Assembly: GCA_041178425.1 (NCBI GenBank)
Contig: JBEGVH010000031.1
Span: 32,001 to 96,000 of the forward strand
Source: Pseudomonadota bacterium
GTDB taxonomy: Bacteria > Bdellovibrionota > Bdellovibrionia > Bdellovibrionales > Bdellovibrionaceae
Length of the DNA stretch: 64,000 bases
Direction of reading: 5' to 3'
The position numbers and the translations under genes were made by a program. Below, piece by piece: positions 1,668-62,967 of this stretch. The notes under the pieces were generated by a model that saw only the letters and a program-made list of their open reading frames with translations, did no database searches and was not told the origin of the DNA. Within the stretch, counting starts at the first letter, position 1; the number at the start of each line of letters is the position of its first letter.

Positions 1668-3503
1668 TTAGTTGCCACTCATACCATTGAGGAATTCCTT
1701 GTTAGTTTTAGTAGACCCTAATTTATCCAACAAAAACTCCATGCTATCAATAACATTCATTGGCGCAAGGACCTTACGAAGGATCCATAAACGGTTTAAA
1801 TCTACCTTTTCGATCAATAAGTCTTCCTTACGAGTTCCAGATTTATTGATGTCCATACATGGGAAAATACGCTTTTCCATGAGTTTACGATCTAGGTGGA
1901 TTTCGGCATTACCCGTACCCTTAAATTCTTCAAAAATAACCTCATCCATACGAGAGCCCGTATCGATAAGCGCGGTAGCAATGATCGTCAAGCTGCCGCC
2001 CTCTTCGATATTTCTCGCCGCACCGAAAAAGCGCTTGGGTTTGTGAAGAGCGTTTGAATCCACACCGCCCGATAAAATTTTACCTGAAGGTGGAACAACA
2101 GTGTTGTACGCTCGTGCCAATCGCGTAATCGAGTCGAGCAAAATAACAACATCATGCTTGTGCTCTACTAAGCGTTTTGCTTTCTCAAGAACCATTTCTG
2201 CAACTTGAACGTGACGAGTCGGAGGCTCATCAAAAGTGGAGCTGACGACCTCCCCTTTTACGTTTCTCGACATGTCTGTCACTTCCTCAGGACGCTCATC
2301 GATGAGCAAAACGATGAGTTTAACATCGGGCTGATTGGCCGATATAGCATTGGCAATATTCTGCATCAAAACGGTTTTACCAGTACGCGGAGGAGCAACA
2401 ATCAACGCTCTTTGGCCCTTACCGAGCGGGGCCATCAAATCTACAACACGAGTGGTGTATTCGCCCGGATTATACTCTAAACGAAGCCTTTGGTTCGGAT
2501 AAAGAGGGGTGAGGTTATCAAAAAGAATCTTATCTTTGCTCTTCTCTGGTGTCTCAAAATTTAATGAGTCGACTTTTAAAAGTGCAAAATATCTCTCACC
2601 ATCTTTTGGCGGTCGCACAGTACCTGTAATTGTGTCACCGGTTCTCAAACCAAATCGGCGAATCTGGGAGGGGCTAACATAAATATCGTCTGGCCCCGGA
2701 AGATAGTTATAATCTGGTGAACGTAAAAACCCGTACCCATCAGGGAGAATTTCTAAAACACCACTACCATAAATGTCTTCCCCTAGGCGAGCCGCTCTCT
2801 TTAGGACTTCAAACACCATGTCCTGACGACGCATACCCGCAGCATTTTCAATTTTAAGCTTGAGGGCAAGATTTGTTAGATCCGCTATGTTTTTTGATTT
2901 TAAATCTTTAGAGTTGAGCTCGCTCTTTTCAGCGTCAGTCAAATTGATATCAGCTAAATCAACTTCGGAGTTCGCCTGAGGCTGAGATCCTCCGTCATTG
3001 CCTCCACCCGCAAAATCCTCTTGGCCATAACTAGAATGGCGGCCCGATTGCTGTCTATCTTGTCGGTGGTCTTGGCGATGATCCTGACGACCATCTTGGC
3101 CTCTGAAATCTTTGCGATAACCATCTTTACGATAACCACCATTATTGTTGTTATAGCGATTCTTATCAAATTTCTTCTGAAATCCCCCGCGATCCCGAGC
3201 TGGCTCAGAGGTTTCGGTATTTGGAGTGTTAGAGCCCGGAGTGGGCTGCTGAGAGGGCGTTGACTCCGCCGATTTCTCTATGCCTGGAGCAGCAGCTTGA
3301 TTAACGGAAGCCTTTTCTGTTGATTCGGAATGAGATGCCGCAGCGGCAGCCTCTAACGGTGGGGGCGCGGAAACAAGTGCTTCATTTGATTGTGAAATTT
3401 GTTCGGCGCTGCTCTCTGAGCTTGAAGCTTCTTTTTTGGCATCGATAGCCTTTGTTCTTCGAGGCTTCTTAACCTCTGCGCTTGCATCTTTAGTTTCAGA
3501 CAA
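1668..3503 (-). CDS. rho: Transcription termination factor Rho with long disordered N-terminal extension
   Basis: GYGFLR and [15 protein letters not shown]-binding motifs, Walker [20 protein letters not shown]; start placed at TTG 3503 behind an AAGGAG Shine-Dalgarno (the ORF track extends to 3611). Confidence 0.97.
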
Positions 3504-51527: not shown

Positions 51528-52949
51528 TCACAGTCCGTTGATATTGTGGATTCTGGTTGTTAACTCATCGATATCTCTCTTTAAATCAGGATCTGAAGCC
51601 TGTAGACTCTTGACCCGTTCTCTTGCGTTGATAACCGTCGTGTGATCTTTATTGCCAAAAGAACGTCCAATATCGGTTAGTGATTTGCCAAGGTGTTTTT
51701 CGATGAGGAACATGCAAACCTGGCGAGGAATAACGATAGATTTTACTCGGCTTGATCCCTTTAAGTCTTGGAGTCTCACTTTATAGTAGTCAGACACAAT
51801 TCGTTGAATGTCTTCGATCGTGGCCGTGTTTTCATATTCCTGAATAGCCAAAACTTTTCGTGCCAATTCCATATCTATTTGCAGACCCTGTAAATCAGCA
51901 AACATCTTTAGGCGATTCAGGTTTCCTTCGAGTTCGCGGATGCTAGTTTTTGAAATGCGAGCGATATAGTTAATAACTTCTTCGGTGAGTTTTACACCCA
52001 TTCGTTCCGACTTATATCTTAGAATTGCCATTCTCGTTTCTAGATCGGGCATTTGAATATTAGCAATGAGGCCCCACTCTAAGCGGGAACGAATCCGATC
52101 CTCGAGACCATGAATTTCTCGAGGAATTCGGTCGCTAGCGACAATGACCTGTTTTCTTTTTTCGAAAAGCTCATTGAGAGTATGAAAAAACTCCTCCTGA
52201 ACTGATTCACCCCGGCGCAAACCCTGAATATCATCTACAAGGAGCACATCGAGGCCTTCGCGATACTTTTGTCTGAATTTATCCATTTGGCCGTGCCTAA
52301 GGGAAGACACGCACTCGTTTATATAACGATCCACAGAGACGTACACTACTCTCATGTGCGGAAACTTCTCTTTTATGTGATTCCCCGCCGCTATAAGCAA
52401 ATGCGTTTTACCCATACCCACCGGACCACAAATAAAAAGGGGGTTATAACTGCTGCCCGGGTTTTGGGCGATGTTGTAAGTTGCAGCATGGGCAAATTCA
52501 TTATTTTTACCAACAACAAATGTCTGAAAGGTGTAATCGGGATTTAAAATGTCTTCGCTTTTAGGTTTTCCTGCCTGGCTCTGCTGACGAATAGGCGCAC
52601 TATGGTCAGTGGGCGGCAACGGAGACTCCGGTACCTGTGGAGGTTCCAGCAGGAGACTCTGAGAGTCTGCGAGAAAGTTCAGAGACATAGAGTCTTGCAT
52701 AACCAGTTGAATATTAAAGGGTTTCTTAAATAGATTCGCAATTTCTGAGACAATTCCCTCTAGATTATTAGAAATCCAATAGTGATGCATTTTTGACGGA
52801 ACCCCAAGATATAGCATCATAACGCCCTGAATTTCTTCAGTTTTTAGTAGTTGTACCGGCCCAAGCCAAGTTTGAAAAAGCTTGTTCTTATCATTTCGGG
52901 TGGTCAGGTTAGATTTCACCTGTGTCCAAAGATCGCTTAAAGGATCCAC
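51528..52949 (-). CDS. dnaA: Chromosomal replication initiator DnaA
   Basis: YNPLFICGPVGMGKTHL, LLVDDIQ, RIRSRLEWGL, IRELEG, FGNKDHTTV. Confidence 0.98.
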   Translation of the reverse strand: MDPLSDLWTQVKSNLTTRNDKNKLFQTWLGPVQLLKTEEIQGVMMLYLGVPSKMHHYWISNNLEGIVSEIANLFKKPFNIQLVMQDSMSLNFLADSQSLLLEPPQVPESPLPPTDHSAPIRQQSQAGKPKSEDILNPDYTFQTFVVGKNNEFAHAATYNIAQNPGSSYNPLFICGPVGMGKTHLLIAAGNHIKEKFPHMRVVYVSVDRYINECVSSLRHGQMDKFRQKYREGLDVLLVDDIQGLRRGESVQEEFFHTLNELFEKRKQVIVASDRIPREIHGLEDRIRSRLEWGLIANIQMPDLETRMAILRYKSERMGVKLTEEVINYIARISKTSIRELEGNLNRLKMFADLQGLQIDMELARKVLAIQEYENTATIEDIQRIVSDYYKVRLQDLKGSSRVKSIVIPRQVCMFLIEKHLGKSLTDIGRSFGNKDHTTVINARERVKSLQASDPDLKRDIDELTTRIHNINGL

Positions 52950-57474: not shown

Positions 57475-59367
57475 ATGACCCAGTTTCAAGTGATCGTAGT
57501 TGGTGCCGGCCATGCCGGAATCGAGGCTTGTTTAGCGGCTGCCCGCTTGGGCTTAAATACTCTAATGGTTACAACAAATACCAAGAGAATCGGATACATG
57601 AGTTGTAATCCATCAATTGGTGGTTTAGCCAAGGGCCATATGGTTAGAGAAATTGATGCTCTCGGTGGGCAAATGGGTTTGGCCGCTGATGGTTCATGTA
57701 TCCAGTTCAAAAGATTAAATGGTCGTAAGGGACCGGCCGTTCGTGGATCTCGAACCCAGAATGATAAGTACCTTTATTCCCATTTAGTAACGCAGGCACT
57801 TTTTAACCAAGAAAACCTATCAGTGATCGAGGGTGAGGTTAAAAGTCTTATCTTAAAAGACGGCCAGTGTTTTGGTGTCGTTCTACAAGATGGATCCAAA
57901 ATTTCTGCCAATGCGGTTGTTTTGACAACGGGCACTTTTATGAATGGGGTTATGCATTTTGGTTTGAAGCAAGTGAAGGGTGGTAGGGTTGGCGACTCTT
58001 CCTCAGTTGGTCTTTCCGACCAACTTCTTGAATACGGTTTTGATGTGAAACGCCTTAAGACTGGAACTCCTGCTCGCCTAATTAAAGAGAGTATTGATTG
58101 GTCAAAGACCGTACCTCAATGGGGAGATGAGAAACATTATCCATTTAGCTTTCGTTCTCCAAAGAAAAGGCAGCTTCCTCAAGTTGCTTGTTATTTAAGT
58201 CGTACGACTCGTGAGACCCACGACATCATCCAGAAGAATCTACATCTTTCCCCGATGTTTTGTGGTGTGATTGAGGGAACTGGACCAAGGTATTGCCCCA
58301 GTATCGAAGATAAAATAACTCGCTTTGCGGATCGTGATAGTCATCAAACTTTTCTTGAACCTGAAGGGTTGTCTACAAATCTTATTTATCTTCAGGGTAT
58401 TTCCACCAGTCTTCCCGAGATGGTGCAGGACCAATTTTTACGAACCATCCCCGGGTTAGAAAATGTGAAAGTGGCTAGATACGGTTACGCTGTCGAGTAT
58501 GACTACATAGAACCAAGTCAAATTCACCATCGACTTGAGACCCGCACTGTTAAAAGCCTATTTTTTGCCGGCCAGATTAACGGAACCAGTGGCTACGAAG
58601 AAGCTGCTGCACAGGGTTTGATTGCGGGAATTAATGCCGCCCACTCTGTTCTTGGCAGGGAAGAGCTCGTTTTAGGTCGGGAAGAAGCCTATATTGGTGT
58701 GCTCATTGATGACTTAGTGACCAAGGGTACCAAAGAGCCCTATCGAATGTTTACCTCCCGAGCAGAGCACCGCTTAGTTTTGCGAGAAGACAATACTTTA
58801 GACCGGTTAAGTAGCGTTTCAAGGCGAGTCGGTTTAATGACTGAAACTCAGCTTGAATTGCTCGAGCAATTGACTCAAAGGCGAAACGATTTAATGGAAC
58901 GCCTTAAAGGAAGTCGCGTTTACCCGAACGCAGCGACTCAAGATAAATTGGAGAAAATGGGTACCCCTGTTTTGACAAAGTCTCTTACTTTCGAGGAGTT
59001 ATTGCGTAGAAGCGAGATTACTTGTTCAGACTTATCTCTGTTAGATTTTCATATGGATGACGATCCAGAGGTAAACGAGAGTGTAGAGATCGCTGTTAAA
59101 TATTCTGGTTACGTTAAGCGTCAGTTGGAAGTTATTGAACAAGCACAGCGACTAGAGTCTCTTAAAATGCCGGAATCATTAGACTATTCTTTAATTAAGG
59201 GGCTCTCAAGAGAGGAAGTAGAGAAGTTAACCAAGATTAGTCCTCGCACACTGGGTCAAGCCCAGAGAATTAGTGGCGTAAATCCCTCAGCAATCCAGGC
59301 GATCATGATATACTTAAAAGGTCGACAGCGAAAACTGAAGGAGATTGATCTTGGATACCAACAGTAA
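57475..59367 (+). CDS. mnmG: tRNA uridine 5-carboxymethylaminomethyl modification enzyme
   Basis: VVGAGHAG, MSCNPSIGG, GPRYCPSIEDK, GQINGTSGYEEAAAQG. Confidence 0.98.
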   Translation: MTQFQVIVVGAGHAGIEACLAAARLGLNTLMVTTNTKRIGYMSCNPSIGGLAKGHMVREIDALGGQMGLAADGSCIQFKRLNGRKGPAVRGSRTQNDKYLYSHLVTQALFNQENLSVIEGEVKSLILKDGQCFGVVLQDGSKISANAVVLTTGTFMNGVMHFGLKQVKGGRVGDSSSVGLSDQLLEYGFDVKRLKTGTPARLIKESIDWSKTVPQWGDEKHYPFSFRSPKKRQLPQVACYLSRTTRETHDIIQKNLHLSPMFCGVIEGTGPRYCPSIEDKITRFADRDSHQTFLEPEGLSTNLIYLQGISTSLPEMVQDQFLRTIPGLENVKVARYGYAVEYDYIEPSQIHHRLETRTVKSLFFAGQINGTSGYEEAAAQGLIAGINAAHSVLGREELVLGREEAYIGVLIDDLVTKGTKEPYRMFTSRAEHRLVLREDNTLDRLSSVSRRVGLMTETQLELLEQLTQRRNDLMERLKGSRVYPNAATQDKLEKMGTPVLTKSLTFEELLRRSEITCSDLSLLDFHMDDDPEVNESVEIAVKYSGYVKRQLEVIEQAQRLESLKMPESLDYSLIKGLSREEVEKLTKISPRTLGQAQRISGVNPSAIQAIMIYLKGRQRKLKEIDLGYQQ

Positions 59368-60037
59368 GAATAGTCAGGCTTCCGCAGCAGCACCGAAGGT
59401 AAATGATTCTTGGAAAATTAGAGAGTGGTTTCCAGATATTTCTGAAGCCACGGATAATAAGCTTAAGTTATTCTGTTCCGAGGTAAAACGTGTCAATTCA
59501 GAAGTGAACTTAGTGTCTGAAAAGACGGTACGCTTTATAGATATTATTCATTTCGCAGATAGTATTCTTTGTTGCCGCTCTATAATGAAAGATCAAAAGA
59601 TTTCTTCGATTTACGATGTAGGCAGTGGAAATGGTTTTCCGGGTCTTGTAATGGCCATTCTATACCCAGAAGTTAAAGTTACCCTAGTGGATGCTGAGAA
59701 TCGCAGGGTTTCCTTTATGAAGACTGTTATTTCTCAGCTTGATCTTAAGAATATAGAAGTGATCGGTAAGCCGATAGAAAGTTTCCCTCCTGGGAGCTTT
59801 GATGTTGCCATTTTGCGTGGATTTGGAACCATCCCAAAAGCAATGTTAAGTTTTCGAAAGCAAGTCCGTAAAAATGGATGCATCTATATGATCAAGGGAG
59901 AAGAATGGCCAAAAGAGGTTACAGATATTCCCATTCAACTCTGTAGTTTTTGGTTACCAAGTCTTGTGGCCGACTATAATTTGCCAATGGGAGAATATAA
60001 GTTCTCTGTTGTTAAGCTCAAGAAGATTTCAGACTAG
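59345..60037 (+). CDS. rsmG: 16S rRNA m7G527 methyltransferase
   Basis: HFADS, DVGSGNGFPGL; follows mnmG; start may be TTG 59351. Confidence 0.92.
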   Translation: MILDTNSKNSQASAAAPKVNDSWKIREWFPDISEATDNKLKLFCSEVKRVNSEVNLVSEKTVRFIDIIHFADSILCCRSIMKDQKISSIYDVGSGNGFPGLVMAILYPEVKVTLVDAENRRVSFMKTVISQLDLKNIEVIGKPIESFPPGSFDVAILRGFGTIPKAMLSFRKQVRKNGCIYMIKGEEWPKEVTDIPIQLCSFWLPSLVADYNLPMGEYKFSVVKLKKISD

Positions 60038-60053
60038 TGTTCCACGTGGAACA
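60038..60053. promoter_or_regulatory. parS: parS centromere site 1
   Basis: Perfect 16-bp palindrome TGTTCCACGTGGAACA immediately after the rsmG stop. Confidence 0.95.
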
Positions 60054-60102
60054 CCCGCTGGGACTCTCATTTTACTAGATGTTTGATTTGCCACGAAGAT
60101 AA

Positions 60103-60606
60103 TTAGTGGCCTCCTCCGGCTTCTTCAGCCCCGCCTTCGCCATGCTCTCCTCCTCCAGACTTTTTCTTTTCTGGAGGTCCCTTTCCTGCAGGCGCTCTAA
60201 CGACAAGCCTACTTATAGCCTTTTTATATCTCTCTACCTCTTCTGAATTGTTCCAGTCATTGCCTTTGTTAAATTCTCGTAGGTATTCGTTACGAACGTA
60301 TTCCTCTCGGCTCAAGATTTTCAACTTCCAGTATTTTACCTTCTCTTCTAGTTTTCTAATGTCTTGAACCGCAATATCTGCCTTAAATCTTAGTCTCTTT
60401 TTTTCCGATTCACCCTCAACAGTTTTCATATTTGCCATATGTTCATCAAGCTGAGTTTTTCTTTCTGCGAGCTTAGTTTCAGAAACTCCCAACTGTGTTT
60501 TTAGATCTTGATAGATGTAATCGGATGATTGCGGGTCAGGAATAGGTTGACGACAACCAAAACTAAGAGATATCAGAATAAATAGAATAAATTTAGTGCT
60601 ATTCAT
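60103..60606 (-). CDS. Hypothetical coiled-coil lipoprotein with Gly/Glu/His-rich tail
   Basis: MNSTKFILFILISLSFGC lipobox; long helical segment; tail KKKSGGGEHGEGGAEEAGGGH; start at ATG 60606. Confidence 0.72.
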   Translation of the reverse strand: MNSTKFILFILISLSFGCRQPIPDPQSSDYIYQDLKTQLGVSETKLAERKTQLDEHMANMKTVEGESEKKRLRFKADIAVQDIRKLEEKVKYWKLKILSREEYVRNEYLREFNKGNDWNNSEEVERYKKAISRLVVRAPAGKGPPEKKKSGGGEHGEGGAEEAGGGH

Positions 60607-60610
60607 GTAG

Positions 60611-60626
60611 TGTTCCACGTGGAACA
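60611..60626. promoter_or_regulatory. parS: parS centromere site 2
   Basis: Second perfect TGTTCCACGTGGAACA, about 90 nt upstream of parA. Confidence 0.95.
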
Positions 60627-60650
60627 TCGGCACATCAGGACAAAACCTAG
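60624..60650 (-). promoter_or_regulatory. Putative sigma28 promoter of the lipoprotein gene, overlapping parS2
   Basis: Minus strand CTAGGTTT-N11-GCCGATGT versus consensus TAAAGTTT-N11-GCCGATAA. Confidence 0.5.
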
Positions 60651-60717
60651 AGTCCAGAGAATATTCCTTGCCATCAACTTAAAAATTTCGGATTTTTAAT
60701 TAAACGATGGAGAACCT

Positions 60718-61578
60718 ATGGCACGCACAATATGTATAGCAAATCAAAAGGGGGGAGTGGGAAAAACGACGACATCCGTCAATCTCTCAGCTGCTCTTGC
60801 ACACCTCGGCAATAAAGTTTTGTTAATCGATCTTGATCCTCAAGGAAATGCTTCTAGTGGATTGGGCCTGAAGCGTTCTGATTTTCAAGATTTGAATGCC
60901 TATCATATGCTTATAGGGGAAAAAACAATAACTGAAGCGACTTATACTACAAGAGTTAAGAATTTGAGTGTAGTTCCCGCAACCCCTGATCTCGTGGGTG
61001 CGGAAATTGAGCTTGTAGACACTCAACACCGCGAATTTAAGCTCAAACAAGAGATTCAGAGTGTCGCCTCCGAATATAACTACGTTATTTTGGACTGCCC
61101 ACCGTCACTTGGACTACTCACAGTGAATGCCCTCACGGCAGCAGACAGTTTTTTAGTACCCCTTCAGTGTGAGTACTACGCTTTGGAAGGTTTGAGTCAG
61201 TTACTTAATACGGCTGGAATTATTAAAAAGAACCTAAACCCCAACCTACACATTGAGGGAATAGTTCTAACTATGTTCGACACCAGAAATAATTTGAGCC
61301 ATCAGGTTGTTGCAGAAATTAAAAATCATTTCGGCGAAAAAGTTTTTGGGGCCATCATTCCCAGAAATGTAAGACTTAGCGAGGCGCCATCACATGGCCT
61401 TAACATCCTTGAATACGATATCAAATCTATTGGGGCAGTTAAGTACTTGCAGTTGGCAAAAGAGCTAGATGAGCGAGTAAATCCCAAAACAAAAAATAAA
61501 CAAAAAGAGTCAAGCAAGAAAGATAACGACACGATTTTACAAGATAAAATAGAAACTGAGAGCGAAGCAAATGGCTGA
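60718..61578 (+). CDS. parA: Chromosome partitioning ATPase ParA/Soj
   Basis: NQKGGVGKTT, DLDPQGNA, DCPPSLG, QCEYYALEG, IPRNVRLSEAPSHG. Confidence 0.97.
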   Translation: MARTICIANQKGGVGKTTTSVNLSAALAHLGNKVLLIDLDPQGNASSGLGLKRSDFQDLNAYHMLIGEKTITEATYTTRVKNLSVVPATPDLVGAEIELVDTQHREFKLKQEIQSVASEYNYVILDCPPSLGLLTVNALTAADSFLVPLQCEYYALEGLSQLLNTAGIIKKNLNPNLHIEGIVLTMFDTRNNLSHQVVAEIKNHFGEKVFGAIIPRNVRLSEAPSHGLNILEYDIKSIGAVKYLQLAKELDERVNPKTKNKQKESSKKDNDTILQDKIETESEANG

Positions 61579-62629
61579 AAAAGTAATTGAACAGAAGAAG
61601 GGTCGACTAGGACGCGGACTCGGAAGCCTTTTAGGTGGAGCGCCCCCAGCAGCAGCACAGCAGGAATCAGCTGCGCCAATTGTGGTAGAAAAACAACAGT
61701 TAAAAGAAGCGTCACCTAAGGTTGAACCTGTAGCCGCAAAGGTGACCGACAAGGTCGAAGGTAGGGCGATTGAGTCAGCCGCAGTCGCGCCGGCCCCAAC
61801 TCCGGCGCCAGTTGCTCCGGAATCAAGAATCTGGAAAATTGCTGTTGAAAAGCTGCATCCAAATGAGTTTCAGCCTCGACAAAAATTCAACAAGGACACG
61901 CTGAAGGAGCTTGCAAACTCCATAAAAGACAAGGGAATTTTACAACCAATAGTGGCAAGAAAACATGCTAGCGGTGCTCTTGAAATTATTTCGGGTGAGC
62001 GTCGATGGAGAGCTGCGCAAATGGCCGGACTCCAAGAAGTGCCTGTCATTATTCGAACAGTCAATGACCAGGACTCCCTTGAACTAGCCATTATTGAGAA
62101 CATTCAAAGAGAGGATCTCAATCCGATAGATGAGGCCGAGGCCTACCAAAGACTAGCTCAGGAGTTTAAACTAACTCAGCAACAAATAGCTGAAAAGGTC
62201 GGTAAAGATCGCGCAACAATTGCCAATTCCCTTCGATTGTTGCTACTCGCTGACCCCGTTCGAGAAATGTTAGTTAATCATGAGCTCTCCGTTGGACATT
62301 GCAAAGTCTTGCTTTCACTAGATAATCCCAAGACACAAACAGAAGTTGCCAGAAAGGCCCTCAAAGACCAACTCAGTGTGCGTGCACTTGAGAAATTAGT
62401 GAATAAGGCCCTGAGAGGATTATCAATTGAAGATGAAGAAGACGGTGATCCAAAGGCTGAACTAAAAAAGAAGTTGATCGATAATATGTCGGAAAACCTT
62501 CAGAAACTCCTAGGAACTAAGGTTGCTATCGATTATGCCGAAGGAAAAGGAAGAATCATACTTTCCTTTTACTCTGATGACGAGTTCAACCAAATCACAG
62601 AAAAAATAAATCAAGCATGGCGGAAGTAA
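61571..62629 (+). CDS. parB: Chromosome partitioning CTPase ParB
   Basis: LGRGLGSL N-terminal peptide, QPR, GERRWRA, ENIQREDL, HTH GKDRATIANSLRLL. Confidence 0.97.
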   Translation: MAEKVIEQKKGRLGRGLGSLLGGAPPAAAQQESAAPIVVEKQQLKEASPKVEPVAAKVTDKVEGRAIESAAVAPAPTPAPVAPESRIWKIAVEKLHPNEFQPRQKFNKDTLKELANSIKDKGILQPIVARKHASGALEIISGERRWRAAQMAGLQEVPVIIRTVNDQDSLELAIIENIQREDLNPIDEAEAYQRLAQEFKLTQQQIAEKVGKDRATIANSLRLLLLADPVREMLVNHELSVGHCKVLLSLDNPKTQTEVARKALKDQLSVRALEKLVNKALRGLSIEDEEDGDPKAELKKKLIDNMSENLQKLLGTKVAIDYAEGKGRIILSFYSDDEFNQITEKINQAWRK

Positions 62630-62967
62630 TTAACCAATCAAACGAAATGAATATCACCGCGATTCTCGATCGCGGTGCTACTTTTGAGGGCAAATTAACC
62701 TTCGAAGGAACTGTGCAAATCGGAGGCACTTTTAGGGGCGAAATTTTTACGAAAGACACCCTCGTTATTAATCCAGGATCAAGGGTTATCGCAGAAATTG
62801 AGGCAGAGACAATCATTATCAGTGGGAATGTAGAGGGAAACCTTTTTGCACGAAAAAAGGTCGTCATGAATCCTCCTGCAATTTTTAAGGGCACAGTCAC
62901 AACGCCGAGCCTAACCATTGAAGAGGGAGTTGTTTTTGAAGGTGCCTCACATATGCCGAAATTTTAG
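62617..62967 (+). CDS. Bactofilin (polymer-forming cytoskeletal protein)
   Basis: Beta-helix repeats FEGKLTFEGTVQIGG.F.GEI...G.V.G...L.IEEG.VFEG. Confidence 0.9.
   Translation: MAEVINQSNEMNITAILDRGATFEGKLTFEGTVQIGGTFRGEIFTKDTLVINPGSRVIAEIEAETIIISGNVEGNLFARKKVVMNPPAIFKGTVTTPSLTIEEGVVFEGASHMPKF

Follow-up and report, generated by a model that had tools for sequence, protein, structure and literature searches.

Organization of the rsmG-parA region

The window analyzed here, a stretch of 64,000 nucleotides, carries between positions 51528 and 59367 open reading frames (ORFs) whose translations resemble dnaA on the minus strand and rnpA, yidD, yidC, jag, mnmE and mnmG on the plus strand, which we take to be an ordinary origin cluster. 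According to the ORF list and Pfam matches, the origin-proximal order continues with rsmG, an antisense ORF, parA, parB and a bactofilin gene, and two parS sites lie among them:

59345..60037, plus strand: rsmG (gidB; ORF list, Pfam GidB, E 3e-36)
60038..60053, no strand: parS1, rsmG side, exact palindrome
60103..60606, minus strand: predicted lipoprotein gene of the Bd3907 family, 167 aa
60611..60626, no strand: parS2, parA side, exact palindrome, also placed by primer mapping on locus L047
60718-61578, plus strand: parA (Pfam AAA_31)
61571-62629, plus strand: parB (Pfam ParB_N/HTH_ParB)
62617-62967, plus strand: bactofilin gene (Pfam Bactofilin)

The earlier note had reported two identical perfect parS palindromes at 60038-60053 and 60611-60626, bracketing a minus-strand predicted lipoprotein gene whose ATG (60606) lies 4 nt from parS2, and an exact-match check found every one of these coordinates to be right. 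The stop codon of rsmG adjoins parS1 (60038), which separates the 3′ ends of two converging genes, rsmG and the lipoprotein gene. Both sites are identical 16-bp consensus palindromes close to parAB and the origin, as expected of parS; the two consensus matches compare with 0.12 expected by chance, and they are the sole perfect parS sites of the 3.06 Mb assembly, the other seven matches having two mismatches. Binding of the cognate ParB to parS was demonstrated in vitro for the B. bacteriovorus site. The names are swapped relative to the published system: parS1 of the window (rsmG side) corresponds to parS2 of Kaljevic 2023, and parS2 of the window (parA side) to its parS1.

The arrangement varies among relatives. 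One locus has tandem parS at the promoter (L020), another has three parS (L024) and two have parS inside rsmG (L028 and L030), while a 230-bp rsmG-parA interval (L022, G027) holds a single parS with neither the lipoprotein gene nor a CCGA motif; at G024:C1:4269286-4269309, CCGA flanks parS on both sides and forms a 24-bp near-palindrome. The rsmG-side parS (L043-L091; 60038-60053 in the window) is extended by at least two extra perfect pairs in 18 of 46 loci, vs. 1 of 49 for the promoter-side parS, and mean pairing over the eight flanking positions is equal at the two sites (2.74 and 2.80, respectively). The rsmG-side parS may double as a terminator hairpin between the converging genes.

The 167-aa product is a predicted lipoprotein, with a signal peptide predicted to end at Cys18 and a cysteine after the hydrophobic stretch that is invariant in 28 of 28 sequences. 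The lipobox of the window protein reads SFGC, which departs from the lipobox consensus at positions -3 and -2. The predicted structure is a long helical hairpin (pLDDT 89). Pfam holds no family for this protein, Foldseek against the PDB gave no fold match at E≤0.001, an Atlas search (best score 0.88) led to clusters without names and no named relative, and none of the 519 representatives found bears a name. The gene is carried by 228 of the 280 genomes of the order and by 1 of 188 outside it, and sits between rsmG and parA in the loci read. The 52 genomes of the order in which it was not found are in many cases small (1.2-2.3 Mb, e.g., families f6, f8, and f9) and mostly retain FliA.

Two predicted promoters at the parA-side parS

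Two divergent promoters are predicted in the space between the lipoprotein gene and parA:

60617-60616, minus strand: predicted sigma-28 start, 10-11 nt after CCGA, mid-parS2
60631-60624, minus strand: FliA-type -10 GCCGATGT, whose CCGA adjoins parS in relatives
60651-60647, minus strand: FliA-type -35 TCTAG, 16 nt before CCGA, where the score peaks (spacer 16)
60668-60696, plus strand: predicted sigma-70-type parAB promoter TTGCCA-N17-GATTTT, start near 60703

A FliA-like promoter with GCCGATGT at 60631-60624, three nucleotides in common with parS2 and FliA spacing had been claimed by the earlier note, and this much stands: the last three bases of the -10 are parS2 bases, and parS2 overlies the end of the -10, the discriminator and the predicted start. 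The -35 element had been placed one base off. That register, CTAGGTTT (60650-60643), scores -3.6 bits and was rejected because relatives and the genome's own FliA-type matrix favour one base further out, where TCTAG scores 6.5 bits; relatives carry TCAAG, TTATG, TTCAG, TTTAG, or TAAAG as this pentamer. With a start-site spacing taken by eye from mapped FliA starts (PMC3627812 Table S2), transcription would begin at 60617-60616, inside parS2 as first proposed.

The genome encodes FliA (TIGR02479 above cut-off) and, in upstream regions with this locus excluded, a T..A(G/T) pentamer is enriched 15-16 nt before CCGA(T/A)A, with 16 and 32 of 169 sites at these spacers vs. 3-10 at other spacers. Clear FliA-type sites precede three of the eight flagellin-family genes. 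Iteration of the matrix, from whose building the locus was left out, yielded 89 FliA-type sites near starts with the consensus CT(A/T/C)AAG-N15/16-GCCGATAAG, which matches the attack-phase FliA consensus of B. bacteriovorus, TTAAG-N16-CCGATA (PMC3627812). The base after CCGAT is a G at the site under study, as in 12 of the 89 sites. The first matrix gives the site 6.1 bits, a value lower than its training range and attained at 3031 of 6,122,578 positions; with a softer matrix, built with a larger pseudocount and one column dropped after the first result was known, it scores 12.6 bits, within the training range (10.6-22.4), and 286 positions score as high. Taken alone, the site is thus modest and only suggestive, and it is its conservation across relatives that lifts it above chance. 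A CCGA(T/A) -10 with a T..AG-type -35 at 15-16 nt occurs here in a genome that has both a FliA gene and a FliA-type regulon, and a genuine sigma-28 promoter, with predicted FliA dependence, is very probable.

Within 60606-60633, an in-frame GTG (60633), ATG (60627), and GTG (60618) permit gene calls that read through parS (MFHVEH), and the protein collection contains both 176-aa and 167-aa forms of the lipoprotein. The longer annotations would place the gene start upstream of the predicted sigma-28 start.

The back-to-back sigma-70-type parAB promoter, absent from the earlier note, is newly predicted here from TTGCCA (60668-60673) and GATTTT (60691-60696) on the plus strand. Of the 33 loci bearing a TTG(A/C) hexamer, 23 have an A...T hexamer after it at spacer 17; no other spacer accounts for more than 7 of 33. 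A generic sigma-70 and terminator scan, whose consensus excludes these -10 variants, returned neither promoter and no terminator at parS1. The predicted parAB start is ~87 bp from the sigma-28 start and, since RNA polymerase usually covers about -50 to +20, the sigma-28 and sigma-70-type complexes would overlap or touch. The -35 elements of the two promoters have bases in common in 15 of 35 loci and are separate in the other 20. In those 20, the sigma-28 -35 persists (2.3 bits vs. -5.97 ± 0.97), and the notion that it is a mere shadow of the parAB -35 was rejected, as the spacer-16 signal holds there. Separately, one locus (L003, G007) has only 34 nt from parS to the parA start, with a perfect TAAAG as sigma-28 -35 beside the ribosome site of parA; a sigma-70 motif was looked for there and not found.

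Conservation of the predicted promoter-parS junction

The earlier note had proposed to look in relatives for the motif abutting parS, and the junction proved highly conserved. In 49 named loci chosen through the protein and not the motif (Bdellovibrio, Pseudobdellovibrio, and related records), CCGA lies immediately 5′ of the parA-side parS in 48; in the 49th it lies 2 nt away and the -35 is displaced along with it. The motif occurs in 0 of 49 on the opposite flank of the parA-side parS and in 0 of 47 on either flank of the rsmG-side parS. The junction was also found in 20 of 20 further loci, and in 72 of 79 when the 49 named loci were pooled with the first 30, a pool that includes this window and some duplicates. 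Across 35 dereplicated loci, spacer 16 alone gives a peak in the -35 score (mean 3.63 bits vs. -5.98 ± 0.75 for shuffles), and 23 of the 35 have a -35 of at least 3 bits there. A pattern of parS, TCGG and -35, which misses the TTAGG and TCAGG variants, matches 138 of 280 genomes of the order and 100 of 130 of the family, and its reversed control matches none; without the -35 term, it occurs in 31 of 31 family members and, beyond the order, in 6 of 188 genomes, these 188 being counted with or without parS. As the loci and genomes are kin, these counts show long retention and are not independent trials. Co-occurrence with FliA was uninformative, FliA being present in 272 of the 280 genomes.

These distributions bear on whether CCGA and the pentamer are a FliA promoter at all, or instead an extended ParB site, a part of the parAB promoter or another protein's site. 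Such a reading could draw on the bases shared with the parAB -35 in 15 of 35 loci, on the first-matrix score below the training range and on the lack of a mapped start for this gene in B. bacteriovorus. It is hard to reconcile with a CCGA that is one-sided, absent at the other parS and, beyond the order, present in 6 of 188 genomes, with the spacer-16 signal of the 20 loci without common bases and with the near-consensus CCGATAAG promoters that remain where parS is displaced, and we regard it as very improbable. Its simplest form, in which CCGA belongs to an extended parS consensus, was rejected on the one-sidedness, the 0 of 47 at the other parS and the 6 of 188 outside the order.

The position of parS relative to the promoter was read in 55 further loci, 6 in the family and 49 in other families, taken among the stronger matches listed, with 80 weaker ones outside that list, plus 7 others. 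In 33 loci parS lies over the predicted start, in 8 (four families) it adjoins the -35 at -51/-52, in 6 (one family) it lies in the leader, in 6 it lies elsewhere and in 2 it was not found, three of these last 8 loci being placed over the start by a slightly different parS finder. At least three loci have parS at -65 to -71, beyond the usual polymerase footprint. In distant families, parS has thus moved, either up against the -35 or into the leader, and the predicted promoter remains: near-consensus CCGATAAG promoters precede the gene at loci with displaced parS, and 7 of the 8 loci that have parS at the -35 are predicted to start transcription on the first base of the start codon. The mean -10 score is 5.8 bits where parS overlaps and 9.2 and 14.1 bits where it does not, which suggests that the overlap is retained at a cost to the consensus.

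An alternative that deserves weight is that a real sigma-28 promoter drives the gene and merely came to share bases with parS, FliA and ParB acting in different phases and never meeting. The rsmG-parA intergenic space is short, mostly 70-250 nt, so that an overlap can arise and freeze without function; the position of parS relative to the promoter differs between families, Bd3907 RNA is low, and loss of ParB has only minor effects on the transcriptome of several bacteria (PMC7022226). On the other hand, the exact junction survives across genera despite lipoprotein identities of 16-51%, the displaced parS sites occupy a few discrete, operator-like positions (-51/-52 in four families) and the -10 is nearer to consensus where parS does not overlap it. 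Such a functionless overlap is a rather unlikely explanation, if a serious one.

Transcription, ParB loading and known systems

All expression evidence comes from B. bacteriovorus or close strains. In B. bacteriovorus, Bd3907 reaches 57.1 RPKM during attack phase vs. 16.9 during growth (102 vs. 9 reads), and was flagged by threshold as attack-specific with p 1.9e-4, which is not significant after Bonferroni correction (0.71), while growth induces parA 305-fold, parB 160-fold and rsmG 30-fold (PMC3627812). Bd3907 RNA appears weakly attack-biased among growth-specific neighbours. Its start is absent among the 140 mapped attack-phase starts (PMC3627812 Table S2), and the supplements of PMC11323537 hold no further expression data.

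RNA contigs from four studies end on the parA side of locus L047 at 2380, 2385, 2390, and 2392, the predicted start being 2392; on the gene side, one contig ends at 2492 (predicted 2491-2492) and one at 2508, 16 nt downstream, and of the other runs one has a low-depth piece from 2437 that crosses the site and one has no cover. Coming from runs of unspecified phase and without DNA control, the contigs give only a weak hint. Run X11 has the gene uncovered and parA deeply covered; a hole in contigs proves nothing, and this gap was not counted. A noncontiguous operon or excludon, with one transcript passing from rsmG through the antisense gene into parA, is not supported: growth-phase reads number 9 for Bd3907 between 583 for rsmG and 1220 for parA (PMC3627812), no RNA contig spans the interval in any of four runs, which is a weak test, and parA has its own conserved promoter motif, which argues against a single rsmG-to-parA transcript.

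The centromere of B. bacteriovorus is subject to a block on ParB loading. In attack phase, ParB foci form on bare plasmid parS and do not form when either parS is supplied with short flanks (242 and 330 bp); the block operates only in B. bacteriovorus, its Bdellovibrio-specific factor was left unnamed, and local topology or specific proteins were proposed (Kaljevic 2023, PMC10547168). The four published primers map on L047 with 0, 2, 1, and 2 mismatches. The published parS1-extended fragment reaches from the start of parA into bd3907 and therefore contains both predicted promoters and the parA-side parS, while parS2-extended contains the rsmG-side parS and neither promoter, and ParB is blocked there too. 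ParB stays off the centromere through the G1-S transition even if made constitutively, a foreign parS nearby is always accessible, and the origin is polar in attack-phase cells (PMC8445325). ParB is depleted at division (PMC10547168), flagellar genes peak at T260, i.e., at division, and a decrease of fliA on prey contact has been reported (PMC5430801).

That the parA-side parS serves as an operator, at which ParB and sigma-28 polymerase exclude each other locally, is the reading that we tentatively prefer, at slightly less than an even chance; the dependence on FliA, the starts and each exclusion step are inferred, the anatomy and conservation are observed, and the phase-specific RNA and the ParB block are those of the B. 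bacteriovorus papers. Because parS has bases in common with the promoter and covers its predicted start, ParB and polymerase would likely exclude each other. We assume, from kinship and the FliA-type regulon, that the window organism has a Bdellovibrio-like attack phase. In growth phase, parAB would be transcribed and ParB on parS would block sigma-28 initiation. At division, ParB would be cleared while the flagellar (FliA-type) genes peak, and the Bd3907-family gene would turn on only after removal of the segregation complex. In attack phase, sigma-28 polymerase would hinder ParB loading at the parA-side parS only, and would interfere with the parAB promoter.

The earlier note had proposed a possible switch that ties the centromere to the life cycle, or else ParB as growth-phase repressor of this gene. 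In favour of the switch, the ParB-blocking fragment does contain the conserved promoter; against a simple switch, the other fragment blocks without one, and Bd3907 RNA is low with no mapped start. Against a switch of the whole centromere, the timing does not match either, as the ParB block persists until replication starts, after fliA is reported down. A local switch of the kind preferred here would probably account for part of the control of the centromere and not all of it. A stronger version, in which sigma-28 polymerase parked on the parS-fused promoter is the Bdellovibrio-specific attack-phase ParB-blocking factor at this site and also shuts parAB, making a ~100-bp bistable switch between hunting and replicating, seems unlikely, and mutation of the promoter alone would probably fail to restore attack-phase ParB foci on parS1-extended.

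Still more would be asked of sigma-28 polymerase if it were chiefly responsible for locking the entire centromere in attack phase, sitting on the parA-side parS, sending its transcript to the other parS and covering that one from a second site in the rsmG end. Like a FliA promoter, the block is Bdellovibrio-specific, attack-phase-specific and local, and L047, which matches all four primers, does carry a look-alike of 6.9 bits in its rsmG end (TTAAG-N16-CAGACAAA, L047:3043-3067, rsmG strand) with a predicted start 3 nt before the rsmG-side parS. Look-alikes reading TTAAG-N16-CAGA (6.9-10.3 bits) recur in L140, L142, L144, L146, and L153, and 11 of 20 loci of the L047 genus reach at least 6 bits in the rsmG end, vs. 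6.7% of 71-nt windows of this genome. They follow, however, from the RsmG protein sequence itself (K...T[DE]K); for the Thr, 13 of 19 use ACA, the poorer codon, and 4 use ACC, with no sign of codon selection, and the look-alike is missing in this window and in four genus mates (-2.8 to 5.6 bits). No conserved sigma-28 site was found at the rsmG-side parS, where no position reaches 6 bits in more than 6% of loci, and a conserved second promoter there was rejected. ParB stays off through G1-S, fliA is reported to be down already on prey contact, and low Bd3907 RNA implies low polymerase occupancy unless the complex is stalled. A lock of the whole centromere is accordingly judged improbable.

The lipoprotein itself could, as a last alternative, hold the origin region at the envelope during attack phase, being made and exported between the parS sites while the ParB complex is absent. 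Compatible with such a tether are the polar origin of attack-phase cells, the occurrence of the gene in 228 of the 280 order genomes and its position, in the loci read, between rsmG and parA; its RNA is low, no family, fold or partner indicates this role, the idea is pure inference, and we consider it highly improbable.

If exclusion by occupancy holds, a sigma factor would control centromere assembly, amounting to developmental licensing of a bacterial centromere; the ParB-blocking fragment contains a predicted promoter for the essential sigma factor of attack phase, FliA, which provides a named candidate blocker and makes it testable how chromosome segregation is linked to the predatory life cycle. 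An E. coli reporter system for Bdellovibrio FliA exists (PMC5430801), and a study with time-course RNA-seq and RpoC ChIP-seq (bioRxiv 10.1101/2025.09.24.678257) is directly relevant to the claim. Even if it is untrue, two unannotated predicted promoters and a likely ParB-repressed gene are identified, as is a lineage-restricted predicted envelope protein retained between parS sites across the order.

The closest known system is bd3908-parS-bd3907-parS-parAB of B. bacteriovorus HD100, in which the genes follow the same order and the two parS are likewise identical; it was reported as the first in which ParB does not remain on the centromere at all times (Kaljevic 2023, PMC10547168). The available text of that paper, the only one to mention bd3907 in the literature searched, treats it as an unknown protein, with no mention of FliA and no promoter on parS, where one is predicted here. 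A search of mostly open-access literature returned no report of a FliA promoter on parS. In the mapped FliA regulon of Karunker 2013, read by eye, starts lie mostly 10-11 nt after CCGA, transcripts are often leaderless and the same -35 variants occur (PMC3627812 Table S2); the window site differs in that its -10 ends in parS bases (CCGATGTT). A partition site at a promoter, as seen here, is the arrangement of ParB-repressor systems (P. aeruginosa parS3/parS4, KorB, omega2). In P. aeruginosa, ParB bound to parS3/parS4, upstream of PA0011/PA0013, represses nearby genes, and chromosomal ParB repression is also known from S. pneumoniae (parS-comCDE, at a distance) and V. cholerae (ParB1); as reviewed, none of the three involves a developmental sigma-factor promoter with parS bases, and the opposite effect, exclusion of ParB by polymerase, is not mentioned for those systems in the available text (PMC7022226). 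Among plasmids, KorB (IncP-1, IncU) is a partition protein that doubles as repressor at promoter operators (PMC7022226), and omega2 is a repressor whose full occupancy of its operators blocks open-complex formation (PMC4627068). Unlike the window locus, these plasmid systems act on housekeeping promoters and have no life-cycle switch. Moreover, omega2 is of a different protein class from ParB. Repression of nearby promoters by ParB-type proteins is thus already known, and what is new is the predicted FliA promoter on parS.
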